In this document: piece after piece, positions 52,183 through 58,430 of the stretch
How the letters are laid out: every line of letters starts with the position of its first letter
Position numbering within the stretch: position 1 is the first letter of the stretch
Assembly: GCA_020832825.1 (NCBI GenBank)
Contig: JAJHRL010000002.1
Location: 1 to 58,581, forward strand
Direction: 5' to 3'
DNA length: 58,581 nucleotides
Source: Candidatus Aenigmatarchaeota archaeon
Lineage (GTDB): Archaea > Aenigmatarchaeota > Aenigmatarchaeia > CG10238-14 > SpSt-28
Made by a program: the position numbers and the translations under genes
The notes under the pieces: model-generated
What the model saw: only the letters and a program-made list of their open reading frames with translations
The model's database searches: none
What the model was told of the DNA's origin: nothing

Positions 52183-53199
52183 CTATAGTATGACATCATT
52201 AATTTTAATCTCTCTGAGTATTTTATCCATTTCTATTAGATTCTTATACCATTTAACTGTTATTGTCCTAGGATCGTCTGGAATTAATTTTCCTTCTTTA
52301 AGAGCTCGGAATATTTCTCTTGCTCCTTCTTTTGGAGTGTATTTAGGAGAAAATTTTAACACATTTCTAATTTTATCAAAACTAACTCTATAGCTTCTGT
52401 TATCAGGAGAACCATACCATTCATAGTTAAATTCGACTCCTATACTATCAGCAATTAATTTAGCAAGAGGAAAAATTTGAAAGTTTTGCTCATTTGAGCC
52501 AACATTAAAAATCTGACCATTTACGATATCGTTTTCCGCTTCTATTACCCTTATGAAAGCGTTGCTCGTATCTTTAACATGAACAAACGGTCTCCATTGA
52601 GTGCCATCTCTCATAATAGATATCTTTCCATTTTTAAACAGTCCCAAAACCATTCCATTTATAGCTAAATCGAATCTCATTCTGTAAGAAAATCCATAAA
52701 CTGTGGCTTGCCTTAATGCAGTTACACAAAAGGTTTTATCAGCTAGCGGTAATGTTTCGCTCTCCCAGAGAACATTTGCCTTAGCATACGTTGTTAAAGG
52801 ATTTACTGGAGAATTCTCATCAAGAATTCCATCTTGAAATCCATAAACGCTACAAGAAGATGCAAGAATGTATTTTTTTACTCCATGTTTTTTTGCAAGT
52901 TTAGCTACTCTAACCCTCCCCTTATAATTTATCTCTAAAGTTTTTTGAGGGTCAAGTTCACCACTGGGATCATTAGACAATGCGGCCATGTCTATTACTA
53001 CATCAACACCATTTAATATAGAAGGATCGAACCATCTGACATCATCTTTAACAATCTTTATTCTATCTTCTATTTCTTTTAAAGAATCAATCCCAAAAAA
53101 CAATCTATCAAGAACAATAACATCATAACCTCTCTCAATTAAAAGTCTAACCAAAACAGAACCTATGTATCCAGCACCACCAGTTACTAATACTTTCAC
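52183..53199 (-). CDS. NAD-dependent epimerase/dehydratase (extended SDR)
   Basis: VLVTGGAGYIGS Rossmann motif, SSCSVYG. Active-site region reads TTYAKANVLWE, not a clean YxxxK. Confidence 0.8.
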   Translation of the reverse strand: MKVLVTGGAGYIGSVLVRLLIERGYDVIVLDRLFFGIDSLKEIEDRIKIVKDDVRWFDPSILNGVDVVIDMAALSNDPSGELDPQKTLEINYKGRVRVAKLAKKHGVKKYILASSCSVYGFQDGILDENSPVNPLTTYAKANVLWESETLPLADKTFCVTALRQATVYGFSYRMRFDLAINGMVLGLFKNGKISIMRDGTQWRPFVHVKDTSNAFIRVIEAENDIVNGQIFNVGSNEQNFQIFPLAKLIADSIGVEFNYEWYGSPDNRSYRVSFDKIRNVLKFSPKYTPKEGAREIFRALKEGKLIPDDPRTITVKWYKNLIEMDKILREIKINDVIL

Positions 53200-54080
53200 A
53201 AACTCACCTGTTGTTTAAATATATTCAAAGCTTCATCTATTGTTAAGGCTTTCAATTTTGTTGCTCTTTCTACTTTAGAAACATCTAGCGCTACTTTACG
53301 TGGTCTCGGTGCTACTTGATTGAGTTCCGGTGTTGTTATTGGTCTAATCAATTCTTTATTTAATCCAAACGTTTCTGCAATCTTTATGCTAAATTCATAG
53401 CGATTCAAATTTGTTTTCCCAGTTATGTGAAAAAGACCTACTTTATCTTTTTCGCATAAAGTTAACAACATTTCAGCTAAATTATCAACAAGAGTGGGGT
53501 TATTATACTGATCAATAACTGCTTTGACTTCTTCTCCACTTTTTAACTTTTTGACAAGCCATAATGCAAAAGGCTCTTTTCCCAAACCTCCTACACCAAA
53601 TAAAACAGCAGTCCGCGCAATTATATAATCTGTTGTTAGAATCTTAATGGCTTCTTCAGCAATTAGCTTAGTTTTTGCATAATAGTTTAACGGATTTGGT
53701 TTGTCTTTTTCGGTATAAGGGGTAGCTTTTTTACCGTCAAAAACATAATCGGTAGATATAAATACATATTTGCAGCCAAAAGTCTTGCAAGCTTCGGCAA
53801 CATTTTTTGTTCCTTCTACGTTAACAAGCCAAGCTTCTTCAGGATGTAATTCACAATAGTCAACATTATGCAATGCATGCGTATCTATAACAAAATCTGG
53901 TTTTATATTTCCAATCAGTTTAAATACATCAGCTCGTTTTGTAACGTCTAATTGGTACACATTTTCTATACTTGGTTTATGAGTATTATACGTTCCAAAA
54001 ACTTGATAATCATTCTTAGCAAGATTATATACCTTATTTCCCAACAAACCAGAGACACCAATAATCAGAATTTTTTTCAC
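53196..54080 (-). CDS. rfbD: dTDP-4-dehydrorhamnose reductase
   Basis: ILIIGVSGLLG, YYAKTKLIAEE (YxxxK), 294 aa. 4-nt overlap with the SDR gene and adjacent to rfbC. Confidence 0.85.
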   Translation of the reverse strand: MKKILIIGVSGLLGNKVYNLAKNDYQVFGTYNTHKPSIENVYQLDVTKRADVFKLIGNIKPDFVIDTHALHNVDYCELHPEEAWLVNVEGTKNVAEACKTFGCKYVFISTDYVFDGKKATPYTEKDKPNPLNYYAKTKLIAEEAIKILTTDYIIARTAVLFGVGGLGKEPFALWLVKKLKSGEEVKAVIDQYNNPTLVDNLAEMLLTLCEKDKVGLFHITGKTNLNRYEFSIKIAETFGLNKELIRPITTPELNQVAPRPRKVALDVSKVERATKLKALTIDEALNIFKQQVSL

Positions 54081-54643
54081 TAGATTTCACCTCTTTCCAT
54101 TAATTCTCTCAATGATGGCCATTTCTTGTCTTTTTCTGAGAGTATGGGGTTTTTAATGGGCCACTTTATTTTTAAGGTTTCATCATTCCAAATTATCCCA
54201 CCTTCTGATTGTGGAGCGTATACATTATCTACGACATAAACAACTTCTGCAACTTCGCTTAAAACTTCAAACCCATGCGCAAAACCACGGGGAATAAAAA
54301 GCATCTCTTTATTGAATTCTGACAAGATAACACTTACATGTTTTCCGAATGTAGGTGAATTTTTTCTTAAATCTACTGCTACATCAAAAATAACACCTCT
54401 AATACATCTAACTAATTTTGCTTGTGAATATGGCTCTTTTTGGAAATGTAACCCTCTCAAAACCCCATAGATAGATTTAGAGTGGTTCTCTTGTATAAAC
54501 TCAGTTTTAATACCAGCTTTCTCAAAATCCTCTTTTTTGTAAGTTTCCATGAAAAACCCTCGCTGATCTTCAAAAACTTTAGGTTTTATTAGGATAACAT
54601 CTGGAATTTCCAATCTTTCGAATTCGAACGGCATAAAAATCAT
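54080..54643 (-). CDS. rfbC: dTDP-4-dehydrorhamnose 3,5-epimerase
   Basis: FEDQRGFFMETY, VLRGLHFQ, KLVRCIRGVIFDVAVDLR, and IPRGFAHGF. Probable true start is the second ATG at 54634. Confidence 0.9.
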   Translation of the reverse strand: MIFMPFEFERLEIPDVILIKPKVFEDQRGFFMETYKKEDFEKAGIKTEFIQENHSKSIYGVLRGLHFQKEPYSQAKLVRCIRGVIFDVAVDLRKNSPTFGKHVSVILSEFNKEMLFIPRGFAHGFEVLSEVAEVVYVVDNVYAPQSEGGIIWNDETLKIKWPIKNPILSEKDKKWPSLRELMERGEI

Positions 54644-54657
54644 TTAATCATCAGATA

Positions 54658-54671
54658 TTTAAATATTTAAA
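54658..54671. promoter_or_regulatory. Palindromic double TATA element TTTAAATATTTAAA in the rfbC / rfbA divergent spacer
   Basis: Perfect 14-bp palindrome. Flanked by mirrored coding starts CATAAAAATCAT (54632-54643) and ATGATTTTCATG (54679-54690). Confidence 0.5.
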
Positions 54672-54678
54672 TCATCAA

Positions 54679-55449
54679 ATGATTTTCATGAAGGGAGTAA
54701 TTTTAGCCGGCGGTCTTGGCACAAGGTTAAGGCCGCTAACAGAAGTTACAAACAAGCACTTGCTACCAGTTTTCGATCAACCAATGATTGTTCATCCTCT
54801 GAATACTTTAAAACAAATAGGAATTACAGACATTTGCATAGTCACTGGCGGAGAATATATGGCAGATTTCATGCGTTTCTTGGGAAGCGGAGCTAAATTT
54901 GGAGTGAGATTAACTTACAAAATACAAGACGGTCCCCTGGGGATAGCTCATGCATTACTTCAAGCAGAAGATTTTTTTGGTAAAGAAAAAGTTGTTGCAA
55001 TCTTAGGAGATAACATTTTTGAAAAAGTTGAGGTACCAAAAGAAGCCTTTGAAGACGAATATGCTTATGTTTTTCTCAAAAAAGTCTCTCATCCAGAAAG
55101 GTTTGGAGTTGCTGTTTTTGACGATAAAGGAAATATTGTTGAAATAGAAGAAAAGCCAAAGATTCCGAAATCAAATTTTGTTGTTACTGGTTTATACATT
55201 TATCCAAACGATGTTTTCGATTTCATCAAAACTTTAAAACCAAGTCAAAGAGGAGAACTTGAAATTACAGATGTTAACAATTGGTATTTGAAGCAAGGAA
55301 GATTGAAAGCGATAAAATTGGAAGGATACTGGAGTGATGCAGGCACATTTTCTTCTTGGCTTAAAGCAAATATCTTAAGAGCATCTTTAGTAAATCCGCA
55401 AATTTTAAACCATGTTAATTTGAAAGAATTGATAGAAGATTTGTTTTAA
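54679..55449 (+). CDS. rfbA: Glucose-1-phosphate thymidylyltransferase-like sugar nucleotidyltransferase
   Basis: MKGVILAGGLGTRLRPLT signature. The start is more likely the ATG at 54688. Confidence 0.85.
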   Translation: MIFMKGVILAGGLGTRLRPLTEVTNKHLLPVFDQPMIVHPLNTLKQIGITDICIVTGGEYMADFMRFLGSGAKFGVRLTYKIQDGPLGIAHALLQAEDFFGKEKVVAILGDNIFEKVEVPKEAFEDEYAYVFLKKVSHPERFGVAVFDDKGNIVEIEEKPKIPKSNFVVTGLYIYPNDVFDFIKTLKPSQRGELEITDVNNWYLKQGRLKAIKLEGYWSDAGTFSSWLKANILRASLVNPQILNHVNLKELIEDLF

Positions 55450-55458
55450 TTTAAAAAT

Positions 55459-56718
55459 TTAATGCTTAGAAAAGCCATAAAAAGCTAATTCAAAAAATGG
55501 TATAATCTCTATCTGAACATTCCCAAGACTTTTTACTTCCTTATACTTTCCTTCATATAGCAAAATTGCTTTATTTAGGTTTATTCTTCTTAAAACTTTT
55601 GCAAATTCATCGATTTCGCATTTAACCTTAGCTTCAACAGGAATTATTTCTCTATTTTTCAAAATAAAATCAATTTCTTTATTACCCTTTCTCCAGTAAA
55701 ACTTCGCGTCTAGCAAAGAAGAAGCCACACATTCCAATAGTTTTCCCCTCTCTATTTCCCTGTACAACCCAAACATTAAAGACCAGTGGTAAGGATAAAT
55801 TTTCTGAAGTTTTCTGCTTGCCATTAACATAGAAATTCTAAAGTTTTTCAAGCTTCTTATTAAATAAGAGAATTTGAGATAAAACAAATGCTTTTGTAAA
55901 GTTTTTTTTGCTACATGCAAATTTTTTGCTAGATTATCAAGATTTAAAATCATGCCAGGATTTTGGTAGAATATTTCTATTAAATTAAAAAGCAAATCTT
56001 CATTCGCATTTTTAAATTTTTTTGGTAAATCCTGGTAAATTATCTTGCCAATAACATTTTCTTTCAAATACTCCATTATCCTTTTCTCATTATTTTCAAA
56101 AACTATTTCTGGAAAAGGTTTTTTCAAGTATTCTGAAAAAGCAAGGAAAAGTTCCTCTCTCCATATTTCAAAATTCTCGACCTTTTTACCAGTTTTAAGT
56201 TCAAAAAACTCTTTCAAAGAGAGAGGCTCAATTTTTAAAAGATAGTGCCTTCCTACGAGGTTCGAATATGCTTCTTTTTCCAATTCTACAGAGCTTGAGC
56301 CGGATACAAAAAACTTTATGTTTGGAAAGGCATCATAAAGCAGTTTTAGTTTTGAACTCCAACTTTCTAATTTATGGATCTCATCAAAAAACACATATAT
56401 CTTTTCCCTTTTCCAATCGACGCCTGTTATTTTTTGATATTCATCCAAAATTCTCTTCAGCTCTTCTACTTTCTCATCAAATGAAAAATAAAGTATGTGT
56501 TTTGGTTCTATTCTTTTTATCAAGTCTTGTATTAGTTGATAGAAAAGCGTAGTTTTGCCAACTCTTCTCAAACCTGTTAGAACAACTATTTGCCTTACGT
56601 CTACCATCTCTTCAAGCTGCTTAAAGGTGTCTCGTCTGAAGGCTGGAGCAAGTTCTTCTTTAACTTTTTCTGTTATCCACCATTCATTTAGGATTCTTAA
56701 AATTTCTTCAATACTCAT
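55459..56718 (-). CDS. AAA_14 + DUF4143-type ATPase with C-terminal PD-(D/E)XK-like motif (paralog 2)
   Basis: NEWW start, Walker A GLRRVGKTT, Walker B VFFDEI, C-terminal KEIDFILKNREIIPVEAKV (D ... E-x-K). Confidence 0.8.
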   Translation of the reverse strand: MSIEEILRILNEWWITEKVKEELAPAFRRDTFKQLEEMVDVRQIVVLTGLRRVGKTTLFYQLIQDLIKRIEPKHILYFSFDEKVEELKRILDEYQKITGVDWKREKIYVFFDEIHKLESWSSKLKLLYDAFPNIKFFVSGSSSVELEKEAYSNLVGRHYLLKIEPLSLKEFFELKTGKKVENFEIWREELFLAFSEYLKKPFPEIVFENNEKRIMEYLKENVIGKIIYQDLPKKFKNANEDLLFNLIEIFYQNPGMILNLDNLAKNLHVAKKTLQKHLFYLKFSYLIRSLKNFRISMLMASRKLQKIYPYHWSLMFGLYREIERGKLLECVASSLLDAKFYWRKGNKEIDFILKNREIIPVEAKVKCEIDEFAKVLRRINLNKAILLYEGKYKEVKSLGNVQIEIIPFFELAFYGFSKH

Positions 56719-56797
56719 AAGTGTATTTAAGGAAACTTATATTTAAATTTTTAGTTTCCTTTTGGAAACTAATGTTATTGATAATGGAAAGATTAAA

Positions 56798-57130
56798 TTA
56801 CAAAATTTTAAGCCCAAATTCTTCTAATATTTTGAAATGTTTAATGTTTTTCGTAACAAGCACCAAATTATTAGCAATAGCTATAGAAGCTTCTAAAAGG
56901 TTGGTATCTGTAATTAGCATTCCTTTGCTATTTAGTTTTCTGTACATATTTAAGTAGAAACTTTTGTTTGTTTCTTTGAAACACCATATTTTTCTAATGA
57001 CTTCGTTCTTAAAGCTCGTTTTAGTAATTCATATTCTAATTCTAAATTTATTTTTAAGTATCACATACGAGTTTTACCCAACTTCTTCTAAGGAAGCTAT
57101 TGATTTATCCAAAAATAAAAATTTCAGCAT
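56798..57130 (-). pseudogene. PIN-domain (VapC-like) gene with two in-frame stop codons
   Basis: Single 111-codon frame: MLKFLFLDKSIASLEEVG*NSYVILKNKFRIRI*ITKTSFKNEVIRK...GMLITDTNLLEASIAIANNLVLVTKNIKHFKILEEFGLKIL*. TAA at 57074-57076, TGA at 57029-57031. PIN acidic positions LD (N-terminal), E, and D-x4-A-x-A...LvT.N near the C-terminus. Confidence 0.6.
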
Positions 57131-57142
57131 GGAAGAAAATAA

Positions 57143-57751
57143 CTACTCGAAGAATGAGTTTTCTCCTAAGTGAACTAATGAATGTAAATCCCAAATTAAT
57201 GCTCTTAGTATGAAGGGCGCTTCCAGGTCTTTTGAAAGTCTCCATTTAACTATTTCCTTTCTGAATCCCTCTTTTGCTTTTTCAACGCTCTCTAGCGAAG
57301 AATTTCCTTTTATTATGCTTATCGAAATTTTGTTTGTTGCATTAAAAAAACTAGCTGCTTTTTCATCTTCAAGAGGTCTTGTCATTCTTGTTTCATCCAT
57401 ACAAAAAACAAACTTTCTGTTGTATCCGATAAAACATTTACCACCTTTTTCAACTATAGATTTACCAAGAGATTTTGCAGCATCACAAGCAATTGTATAA
57501 ACTATTTTTTCTTTTAGAGCTTCCTCATCACCCTCTTCTACTATTTTTTCATCGTTATAACCATAAATTGTTTTTTCATCACCATGACCATTAAGTATGA
57601 GAAAAGAAGGCCTATGCGAATTAAGAAAATCGAAGAAAGTTTCCCTGTTTGCCTTCTCTCTTTCTAGCTTCAAGACTTTTAACTCCTCTTTTTTCTGCTT
57701 CTTGAAGAATGTACCTGGACCAATGAAAAATGTAAAAAGTTGAATCATCAT
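57143..57751 (-). CDS. Small clan-CD-like (caspase/gingipain-fold) cysteine protease candidate
   Basis: 202 aa. SFLILNGHGDE (strand + His-Gly, His56), then KIVYTIACDAAK (strand + Cys89), then KCFIGY. Order and spacing match the His/Cys dyad of clan CD. By eye only. Confidence 0.4.
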   Translation of the reverse strand: MMIQLFTFFIGPGTFFKKQKKEELKVLKLEREKANRETFFDFLNSHRPSFLILNGHGDEKTIYGYNDEKIVEEGDEEALKEKIVYTIACDAAKSLGKSIVEKGGKCFIGYNRKFVFCMDETRMTRPLEDEKAASFFNATNKISISIIKGNSSLESVEKAKEGFRKEIVKWRLSKDLEAPFILRALIWDLHSLVHLGENSFFE

Positions 57752-57993
57752 GGTCGGGCAATGTTATTAAGAGCTTCTTCATAACTTTCGACCTCTTCTT
57801 TAATTAGTTTCAAATACTCTATTTCCATTCTACCTAAAAGTTCCCCAATTTCGTCCTTTTTTTCTATGTGGTTTAAGATTTCTTCTTTTTTCAACGAACC
57901 AACACCGCCTATAACTAATCTTAAATTGGGTGGCATTCTTTCAAACCTTGCTTTTACCAGCTCCCAAAAAATTTCTGGAATTTCTTCTTTCAT
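57748..57993 (-). CDS. Small hypothetical protein (81 aa), weak paralog of the upstream 61-aa protein
   Basis: ATGA overlaps on both sides. LRLVIGGVGSLKKEEILNHIEKKDEIGELLGRM aligns by eye with LPIVKVNGKFYTWEEVYKEVERKSELARKMIDE. Confidence 0.4.
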   Translation of the reverse strand: MKEEIPEIFWELVKARFERMPPNLRLVIGGVGSLKKEEILNHIEKKDEIGELLGRMEIEYLKLIKEEVESYEEALNNIARP

Positions 57994-58175
57994 ATCAATC
58001 CCATCTTTTTAAGTTCATCTATCATTTTTCTAGCAAGCTCGCTTTTTCTTTCCACTTCTTTATAAACTTCCTCCCACGTATAAAATTTGCCATTAACCTT
58101 TACAATTGGTAGTTTTCTTTCTCCAAAAGGTAAAAGAGAAAAACATTCTTCTAATTTTTTGAACAATCTTCTCAT
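57990..58175 (-). CDS. Small hypothetical protein (61 aa), first gene of the operon
   Basis: ORF with a 4-nt ATGA overlap to the next gene. No recognisable family. Confidence 0.4.
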   Translation of the reverse strand: MRRLFKKLEECFSLLPFGERKLPIVKVNGKFYTWEEVYKEVERKSELARKMIDELKKMGLI

Positions 58176-58430
58176 CTATATCCATAATTTTAAGTTGGAA
58201 CTCATCTTTAAATTCTATAGCAGCGAATTTACGACTTGAAAAAGAATAAGTGCTTACATTAAAAAACTATTAGAACAAGTACTCTCATTGGAGAAAAAGA
58301 AGAGTTGTCGTTGTCTTTACAAGCAGAGCAATAGTTGTAGGAAGAGTGGGAACAAAAATTAAGGATAATTAAATAATGTCTCTGAAGCTAATTACTGAAA
58401 AACTTATAAATAAAATTGCTAATATTATCC

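Follow-up and report, generated by a model that had tools for sequence, protein, structure and literature searches.

From bacteria to animals, switches for cell death and immunity are driven by cysteine proteases with the caspase fold (clan CD), and the known prokaryotic examples are large, multidomain and sensor-linked. Here we describe a family of such proteins with about 212 amino acids (aa) and a single domain, encoded together with two small proteins, small1 and small2, on a 58,581-nucleotide (nt) contig of a Candidatus Aenigmatarchaeota archaeon (JAJHRL010000002.1, assembly GCA_020832825.1; 'the window' below is this whole stretch). DPANN archaea, which have reduced genomes with few accessory genes, hold most of the copies; strict conservation of a three-gene unit in such genomes suggests that it is likely to do something specific.

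Gingipain R (RgpB, MEROPS C25) has the caspase-haemoglobinase fold, with the catalytic His after strand β3 and the Cys after β4. Its structure (4ief) is a top match of the archaeal protease, and Peptidase_C25 is the only Pfam family that the archaeal protein approaches by sequence. In RgpB an acidic residue at the start of helix α1 binds the P1 Arg, and a pro-domain loop that puts an Arg into the S1 pocket keeps the enzyme inactive (PMC4357240); we propose the same logic for the small archaeal proteins. RgpB is, however, a secreted enzyme with two sub-domains, an immunoglobulin-like domain and a pro-domain of 229 residues in cis, whereas the archaeal protease (~212 aa) is cytosolic, has one domain and no pro-domain, and has two separate gene products as candidate regulators.

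The best structural match comes from the CHAT-type defence proteases (SAVED-CHAT of the cyclic oligonucleotide-based antiphage signalling system (CBASS) and of type III CRISPR; 8tl0). One of these proteases, TPR-CHAT (Csx29), acts on small partners encoded next to it, Csx30 and Csx31. CHAT proteases carry SAVED or TPR sensor or adaptor domains and require either a nucleotide signal or a Cas complex; the archaeal protease, in contrast, has no extra domain, no CRISPR or CBASS neighbour, no match to CHAT hidden Markov models and no match in PADLOC.

Orthocaspases and metacaspases (MEROPS C14B) are prokaryotic relatives of caspases that stand alone, have a His–Cys dyad and cut on the C-terminal side of basic residues (PMC6426788, PMC4357240). 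They have acidic positions lining the S1 pocket analogous to those of the archaeal protease. The latter is much shorter, lacks a p10-like region or extra strands, has no C14 match (25 members searched) and always comes with two small genes.

In organization, the locus resembles type II toxin–antitoxin (TA) operons: it is small and autonomous, is coupled by 4-nt overlaps and encodes small proteins before the enzyme. Like TA operons, it occupies varied positions, is often decayed or duplicated and has other TA genes nearby. The cassette differs in having three genes rather than two, and no DNA-binding antitoxin fold can be recognised in its small proteins. To our knowledge, clan-CD proteases are not an established class of TA toxin. 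The fold and the chemistry of the archaeal enzyme are known; what is new is the family, undescribed in Pfam, NCBIfam, PADLOC and PHROGs, together with the very small size of its members and their obligatory association with two mini-proteins.

A three-gene cassette conserved across archaeal genomes

The cassette consists of three genes on the minus strand of the window:

57990..58185, minus strand: small1, ~64 aa when corrected, reading MDIDEKIVQKIRRMF and then SLLPFGERKLPIVKVNGKFYTWEEV...KKMGLI; frameshifted in the window
57748..57993, minus strand: small2, intact (81 aa); its start and the stop of small1 share 4 nt (ATGA)
57143..57782, minus strand: clan-CD-fold cysteine protease gene, ~212 aa when corrected, start ATG at 57782; frameshifted in the window

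Related cassette loci carry L numbers here (L010, L016 and so on), and protease family members P numbers (P0001, P0021). A profile scan of GTDB genomes with a narrower alignment gave 2 loci only, and a metagenome scan added 80. Upstream sequence of 460 nt or more was available for 68 distinct loci, and in all 68 the protease gene was preceded on its own strand by small1 and small2, always in that order; loci retrieved through either protease or small2 homologues each had the order small1–small2–protease. The first two genes overlapped by 4 nt in 37 of the 68 loci. small2 and the protease gene overlapped in 51/67 loci and lay 0–15 nt apart in a further 15. All-against-all clustering of 678 flanking open reading frames (ORFs) revealed no fourth conserved gene, the best family occurring in 6/95 loci at varying positions.

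The locus is best explained as one copy of a self-contained, translationally coupled operon, small1–small2–protease; for this explanation as a whole, we estimate a probability of about 0.6. Of the longer gene neighbourhood that the original prediction had read from the window, this three-gene part is kept, and the PIN and ATPase genes that follow it are not. Many DPANN-type archaea (Aenigmatarchaeota, Woesearchaeota, Nanoarchaeia) carry the operon, and it also occurs in Marsarchaeota.

The flanks of the cassette vary, with TA, defence or restriction genes in several loci. In one Nanoarchaeia-type contig (L097:1-5004), Fic, DpnI, HEPN/nucleotidyltransferase and Bro-N genes directly precede the cassette and give the region the look of a defence or mobile island. 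A transfer RNA (tRNA) gene lay 4–81 nt from the cassette boundary in 6/60 loci (L001:3044-3118, L008:1154-1240, L012:5670-5740, L021:2003-2074, L028:5675-5747 and L081:5720-5796), where roughly 1/60 would be expected; three of the six are tRNA-Thr(CGT). Insertion beside tRNA genes and old synteny are both possible, and no integrase was seen there. A tandem cassette is suggested in L071 (29-670, 1150-1317), where a second small1 lies ~480 nt past the first protease gene and the contig then ends.

A minimal clan-CD protease with an invariant His–Cys dyad

Clan-CD enzymes have a six-stranded sheet (five strands parallel, one antiparallel) with flanking helices and a small β-section on the loop after β3; the catalytic His stands at the C-terminal end of β3 and the Cys at the C-terminal end of β4 (PMC4357240). 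We modelled family member P0001 with AlphaFold2, using 25 homologues (predicted local distance difference test (pLDDT) 97.2, predicted template modelling score (pTM) 0.92). The model has six main strands (residues 3–8, 35–40, 60–63, 93–96, 116–120 and 202–206) with helices to either side, and the third strand is followed by a small hairpin (71–73/79–82). His66 falls 3 residues past strand 60–63 and Cys99 3 residues past strand 93–96, that is, after strands 3 and 4, which fits the clan-CD definition (PMC4357240).

Significant Foldseek matches of the model were to clan-CD enzymes only. In the PDB, SAVED-CHAT came first (8tl0, E = 1.5e-7, TMq up to 0.62), followed by RgpB (4ief, E = 6.8e-5, TMq 0.61), caspase-11 (E = 1.5e-4), caspase-4 and caspase-1; in BFVD, the matches were a Megaviridae (giant-virus) caspase-domain protein (E = 8e-5) and C11 proteases. 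Among 248 distinct family members, the dyad and the Gly that follows the His were invariant (His66 246/246, Gly67 246/246, Cys99 248/248), as was an acidic residue at position 12 (Asp/Glu, 241/241). Asp139 was present in 240/245, and Asn64 and Gly65 were nearly invariant. The original prediction had proposed a small standalone clan-CD protein with His56 and Cys89 as its dyad, counted in a 202-aa ORF; these are His66 and Cys99 of the full-length protein, and both the predicted fold and the conservation of the two residues support the proposal. Hydrophobic runs of signal-peptide or transmembrane length were absent from small1, small2 and the protease. As modelled, the third gene encodes a minimal, cytosolic, single-domain protein of ~212 aa with the caspase/gingipain/CHAT fold and an invariant His–Cys dyad.

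The family is large. Searched exhaustively with HMMER, a set of 1.84 billion representatives (50%-identity clusters) gave 2,579 clusters at E ≤ 1e-3, 1,334 at E ≤ 1e-10 and 381 at E ≤ 1e-30. The best 150 clusters were all 150–246 aa long and are therefore single-domain proteins. Named sources were Aenigmatarchaeota, Marsarchaeota, Woesearchaeota, Nanoarchaeia and unclassified 'Euryarchaeota' metagenome-assembled genomes, with the Aenigmatarchaeota-named homologues at 52–64% identity to the query.

At threshold, neither Pfam nor NCBIfam matched any of the three cassette proteins. Peptidase_C25 (PF01364, cut-off 23 bits) is the nearest sequence family, with weak matches in 4/25 members; the best member, P0021, reached 21.7 bits over residues 14–204, and the window protein and P0001 were unmatched. 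The Peptidase_C14 and CHAT Pfam models had no match among the 25 members, even at E ≤ 1. Assignment of the protease to PDB entries by sequence (25-sequence profile, P0021) returned chance matches only and was rejected. A diverse alignment of the family contained no conserved stretch of 7–10 residues. Database entries are all annotated 'hypothetical protein', except for a few evidently mislabelled Joint Genome Institute (JGI) entries, and a search of the full-text literature found no description of the family or the cassette.

Two conserved mini-proteins

small1 and small2 are conserved, soluble proteins of ~60 and ~80 aa that always accompany the protease. They had been called as genes from the window alone, and their reality is supported by 71 (small1) and 75 (small2) distinct homologues, down to ~25% identity, by low ratios of non-synonymous to synonymous substitution (dN/dS, 0.06–0.12 for small1, small2 and the protease in comparisons of the window with L010 and L017) and by tight coupling to the protease. 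The 68 homologues of small2 found in databases are all 'hypothetical'.

Pro19, Arg23, Trp37 and Glu43 are nearly invariant across the 71 small1 sequences, position 23 being Arg in 67 and Lys in 4. In the 75 small2 sequences, Arg16, Gly29 and Gly50 are invariant or nearly so, and Lys25 and Lys36 are also conserved (position 25 is Lys in 53 and Arg in 10). Arg23 of small1 and Lys25 of small2 each lie four positions past a conserved Pro, in a loop before a β-hairpin. small1 ends exactly 27 residues past its conserved Trp in 70/70 sequences, with a tail of the form [LM]-x-[ILF]-[IL]. Unlike this small1 tail (for example, window 57990–58070), that of small2 varies in length and sequence.

Profile–profile alignment with hhalign related the two proteins at P = 0.009 with 10 sequences each and at P = 1.1e-4 (probability 57%) with the 71- and 75-sequence profiles, pairing the conserved Pro, the hairpin and the next helix and placing small1 Arg23 on small2 Lys25. 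Judged from these sequence profiles, the two are probably paralogues; the origin of the pair by an old duplication, which the original prediction had suggested, is plausible though not proven.

The AlphaFold2 model of small2 (pLDDT 91) consists of a helix, a β-hairpin, a helix and a long helix. Prefoldin beta was considered as an identity for small2 and rejected, the best Foldseek match (2zqm) reaching only E = 0.3 and TMq 0.42, with no match in Pfam. For small1, DUF7713 matched weakly in 4/10 members (best E = 0.027) and missed the cut-off.

The cassette copy in the window is damaged

The minus-strand ORFs of 61 aa (57990–58175), 81 aa (57748–57993) and 202 aa (57143–57751) on which the original prediction was built are present at those positions, as are the motifs ILNGHGDE, VYTIACDAAK and CFIGY in the last of them (His codon 57586–57584, Cys codon 57487–57485). 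Comparison with relatives changed two of the three gene models. Protease homologues start MKKLLITLPDHDD, which the window encodes in another frame, in an ORF that opens at 57782. A query joining the two frames (the 202-aa ORF and the ORF 57621–57782, MKKLLITLPDHDDSTFYIFHW...) matched 30 proteins of ~212 aa, each of which it covered end to end, the best full-length match being P0001 at 91% identity. DNA alignment with two independent relatives, L010 and L011, showed that an extra single T at 57681/57682 shifts the protease frame; the true gene overlaps small2 by 35 nt, and the product of the 202-aa ORF lacks strand β1, helix α1 and the conserved Asp12. The original prediction had the three ORFs chained by ATGA overlaps at 57990–57993 and 57748–57751. 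Both tetranucleotides are there, but because the protease starts at 57782 and not at 57751, the second junction is an artefact, a by-product of the frameshift.

In small1, DNA alignment with relatives placed an extra T within the T-run 58139–58143, which again shifts the frame. The correct start codon is the ATG at 58185, as in L010, L011 and L017, which encode an intact 64-aa protein (MDIDEKII...); the 61-aa ORF is the downstream frame with a fortuitous ATG.

The window's copy of the cassette is thus damaged, with two 1-nt insertions breaking small1 and the protease. If the frameshifts are real, the module would be dead in this genome. The low dN/dS values imply that the lesions are very recent or are assembly errors, and the second alternative, in which the copy is intact in the organism and both single-T insertions are assembly or consensus errors, falls only somewhat short of even odds. 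Both lesions are single-base insertions in T runs or doublets, the cassette lies ~400 nt from the end of the contig, dN/dS against the relatives gives no sign of relaxed selection and small2 is intact. Against such errors, the adjacent rml-like genes and the ATPase gene are full length, split protease genes occur in other loci too, and the adjoining TA remnant (see below) carries substitutions and deletions beyond sequencing error, so that local decay is real. The split genes elsewhere (L024:5001-5640, L025:3297-3936 and L027:2206-2671) have break sites unlike those of the window and are either broken copies or assembly errors.

One further feature stands upstream of small1:

58199..58213, minus strand: TATA-like A/T-rich element TATAGAATTTAAAGA, ~14–28 nt upstream of the corrected small1 ATG

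The element is kept in the window, L010, L011 and L017 and is possibly the archaeal promoter of the cassette, a candidate TATA box with a short or absent leader.

A possible proteolytic switch

Clan-CD enzymes specific for Arg or Lys have acidic S1 residues at the junction of loop L1 and helix α1 and in loop L5, such as Asp163 (α1) in RgpB and Asp365 and Glu500 in MALT1, and in RgpB a loop of the pro-domain inserts Arg126 into S1 and holds the enzyme inactive (PMC4357240). Since the conserved Asp/Glu12 (L1/α1) and Asp139 (L5) of the archaeal family occupy S1-equivalent positions, cleavage after Arg or Lys is predicted. The protease would be an active endopeptidase, and small1 and small2 would form a hetero-complex with it, in which the loops carrying small1 Arg23 and small2 Lys25 are the likeliest to occupy the active site. 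These basic loops could serve as a trans-acting latch comparable to the Arg126 loop of RgpB, could be the sites of cleavage, or could combine the two functions, and the module would then be turned on when its small partners are cut. The resulting scheme is a minimal three-part proteolytic switch built on a caspase-fold protease that would be smaller than any other free-standing one known. A mini-protein heterodimer would keep it latent by plugging the acidic S1 pocket with conserved Arg/Lys loops, and the switch would fire when the partners are cleaved or displaced. We offer this scheme tentatively, as a possible arrangement that is on balance doubtful. If it is true, the cassette would be a sensor-less, minimal counterpart of the CHAT and caspase death-and-defence switches and a possible model for the origin of regulated caspase-type proteolysis. 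The system is small enough to suit direct biochemistry and co-structure prediction, and such work could reveal how regulation in trans acts on a bare caspase fold.

The role of the cassette is most likely accessory, as a TA-like module or a stress or conflict switch, rather than core housekeeping; unrelated genomic positions, TA and restriction neighbours, the tandem copy in L071 and the broken copies favour this. Several observations weigh against the reading as a whole. Some loci lie among housekeeping genes (dnaK/grpE/dnaJ, ribosomal protein genes, TFB). In PADLOC and PHROGs, the cassette proteins were unmatched at E ≤ 1, save for a meaningless 11-residue PHROG match. Viral contigs, GenBank phages and plasmids held no relatives of the cassette, and a mobile-element origin was rejected. 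Foldseek found no significant PDB neighbour for small2, so that there is no precedent for it as an inhibitor or substrate. The position of the cassette near the contig end allows the frameshifts to be assembly errors. Strong purifying selection, the missing defence and phage matches and the housekeeping neighbours would fit a housekeeping function equally well.

Housekeeping maturation is a serious rival, although an unlikely one. Here, small1 and small2 would be the functional products, for example a hetero-oligomeric structural or chaperone-like complex, and the protease their dedicated processor. The cysteine protease Prp, which processes ribosomal protein L27 in Firmicutes, offers a parallel. 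Strict co-occurrence and tight translational coupling would suit such a pairing, as would small proteins conserved as well as the protease, dN/dS of ~0.1 and the weakly prefoldin-beta-like helix–hairpin–helix topology of small2, in addition to the neighbours and library results just given. The prefoldin match, however, lacks significance (E = 0.3), and neither end of the small proteins has an evident processed extension: the C-terminus of small1 is of fixed length, and the variable parts are short. Broken or duplicated copies in several genomes and varying genomic positions, with many loci beside TA or restriction genes, also speak for an accessory module over a maturation system.

A non-hydrolytic clan-CD protein is improbable, whether as a transpeptidase or ligase linking or cyclising small1 and small2 or as a scaffold with no catalytic role. 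Legumain-type and PorU/GPI8-type clan-CD enzymes can be transpeptidases or ligases, the fold and dyad are common to the clan-CD transamidases, and the fixed C-terminus of small1, [LM]-x-[ILF]-[IL], might serve as a recognition or acceptor element. Yet there is no conserved tail that resembles a sorting signal or could be cleaved off, both small proteins are folded conserved domains and not precursor peptides, and the invariance of His, Cys and Gly67 speaks against a scaffold.

A variable slot downstream of the cassette

Downstream of the protease, the window contains three features on the same strand:

57083..57142, minus strand: T-rich 3' flank of the cassette, conserved, 87–92% identical in L010, L016, L017 and L018
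56798..57082, minus strand: TA-like remnant outside the cassette, with an antitoxin-like start and a VapC/PIN C-terminal part
55459..56718, minus strand: AAA_14 + DUF4143 ATPase, 419 aa, intact, outside the cassette (Pfam; PADLOC PDC-S01)

The original prediction had a dead PIN gene next to the protease. A frame with two stop codons does open 12 nt after the 202-aa ORF and has a VapC-like C-terminal end; what it holds is a C-terminal VapC fragment only, and not a PIN domain of ~130 aa with N-terminal acidic residues. The match covers the last ~59 residues, which include a 49-aa ORF (56798–56947), and reaches 34 bits in NCBIfam (cut-off 140) over profile positions 66–124 of 130. The first 18 codons of the frame fall in a 62-nt T-rich segment (57142–57083) that is conserved downstream of the protease in relatives. 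There, the frame is closed after seven codons in L010, L016, L017 and L018 (MLKFLFS* in L010, with GTG for ATG in L016 and L017); the PIN-like 'FLFLDKS' of 'MLKFLFLDKS' arises in the window through the loss of 2 nt. The supposed N-terminus is therefore cassette flank, and in this arrangement the PIN gene adjoining the protease was never a full gene. The T-rich flank may itself be a terminator.

Positions 56798–57082 are the wreck of a small TA-like locus that is not coupled to the protease. Between the flank and the VapC part lies a short ORF whose counterpart in L010 is intact and starts MGYLKINLEDELL; in the window, codon 2 is TGA (ATG TGA against ATG GGA) and the frame changes. The corresponding stretch of L010 (L010:1818-2306) also has an intact 78-aa gene on the opposite strand, and ~310 nt of L010 are deleted in the window. 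A ribbon-helix-helix antitoxin label for the piece upstream of the VapC fragment came from sequence reading only, found no support in Pfam and was dropped.

The 419-aa ATPase gene opens 79 nt beyond the two-stop frame. As originally predicted, it is of the AAA_14/DUF4143 type, with both Pfam domains above threshold (AAA_14, E = 6.8e-33, 113.9 bits, cut-off 27; DUF4143, E = 3.5e-12, 46.8 bits, cut-off 28.1), and in PADLOC it is matched by PDC-S01, a candidate single-gene defence system (E = 2.2e-51). In L016 and L018, whose cassettes share ~92% identity with that of the window, an unrelated 207-aa gene comes next and is followed directly by the same rmlA-like gene as in the window (54679–55449). 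This different gene in the same place indicates that the PIN fragment and the ATPase occupy a variable slot, of which they are unrelated cargo. The 207-aa gene (L016:1173-1796, L017:4972-5595, L018:1075-1698) is unannotated, with a sub-threshold EF-hand match in Pfam only.

A coupled five-gene conflict operon, in which the protease and two mini-proteins act with a dead PIN nuclease and an ATPase-nuclease, has in its favour the shared strand with gaps of 12 and 79 nt, the PDC-S01 match and TA and defence genes near the cassette in a few other loci, but it is already contradicted by the neighbourhood survey and highly improbable: the PIN fragment recurs in 0/95 loci and an AAA_14 relative in 1/95 (phmmer), with L015 adding another on the opposite strand; the slot holds another gene in L016 and L018; the PIN 'N-terminus' is open only through the 2-nt deletion; and PDC-S01 is a single-gene candidate. 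The annotation of the window is corrected to two frameshifted genes, a toxin fragment in place of a dead PIN gene and an unrelated stand-alone ATPase.

Beyond the ATPase, the window carries a run of deoxythymidine diphosphate (dTDP)-sugar (rml-like) genes at 52183–55449. By their sequence, they appear to encode a 338-aa epimerase/dehydratase-like, a 294-aa RmlD-like and a 187-aa RmlC-like protein; a 256-aa protein in the same run is named glucose-1-phosphate thymidylyltransferase in the sources.

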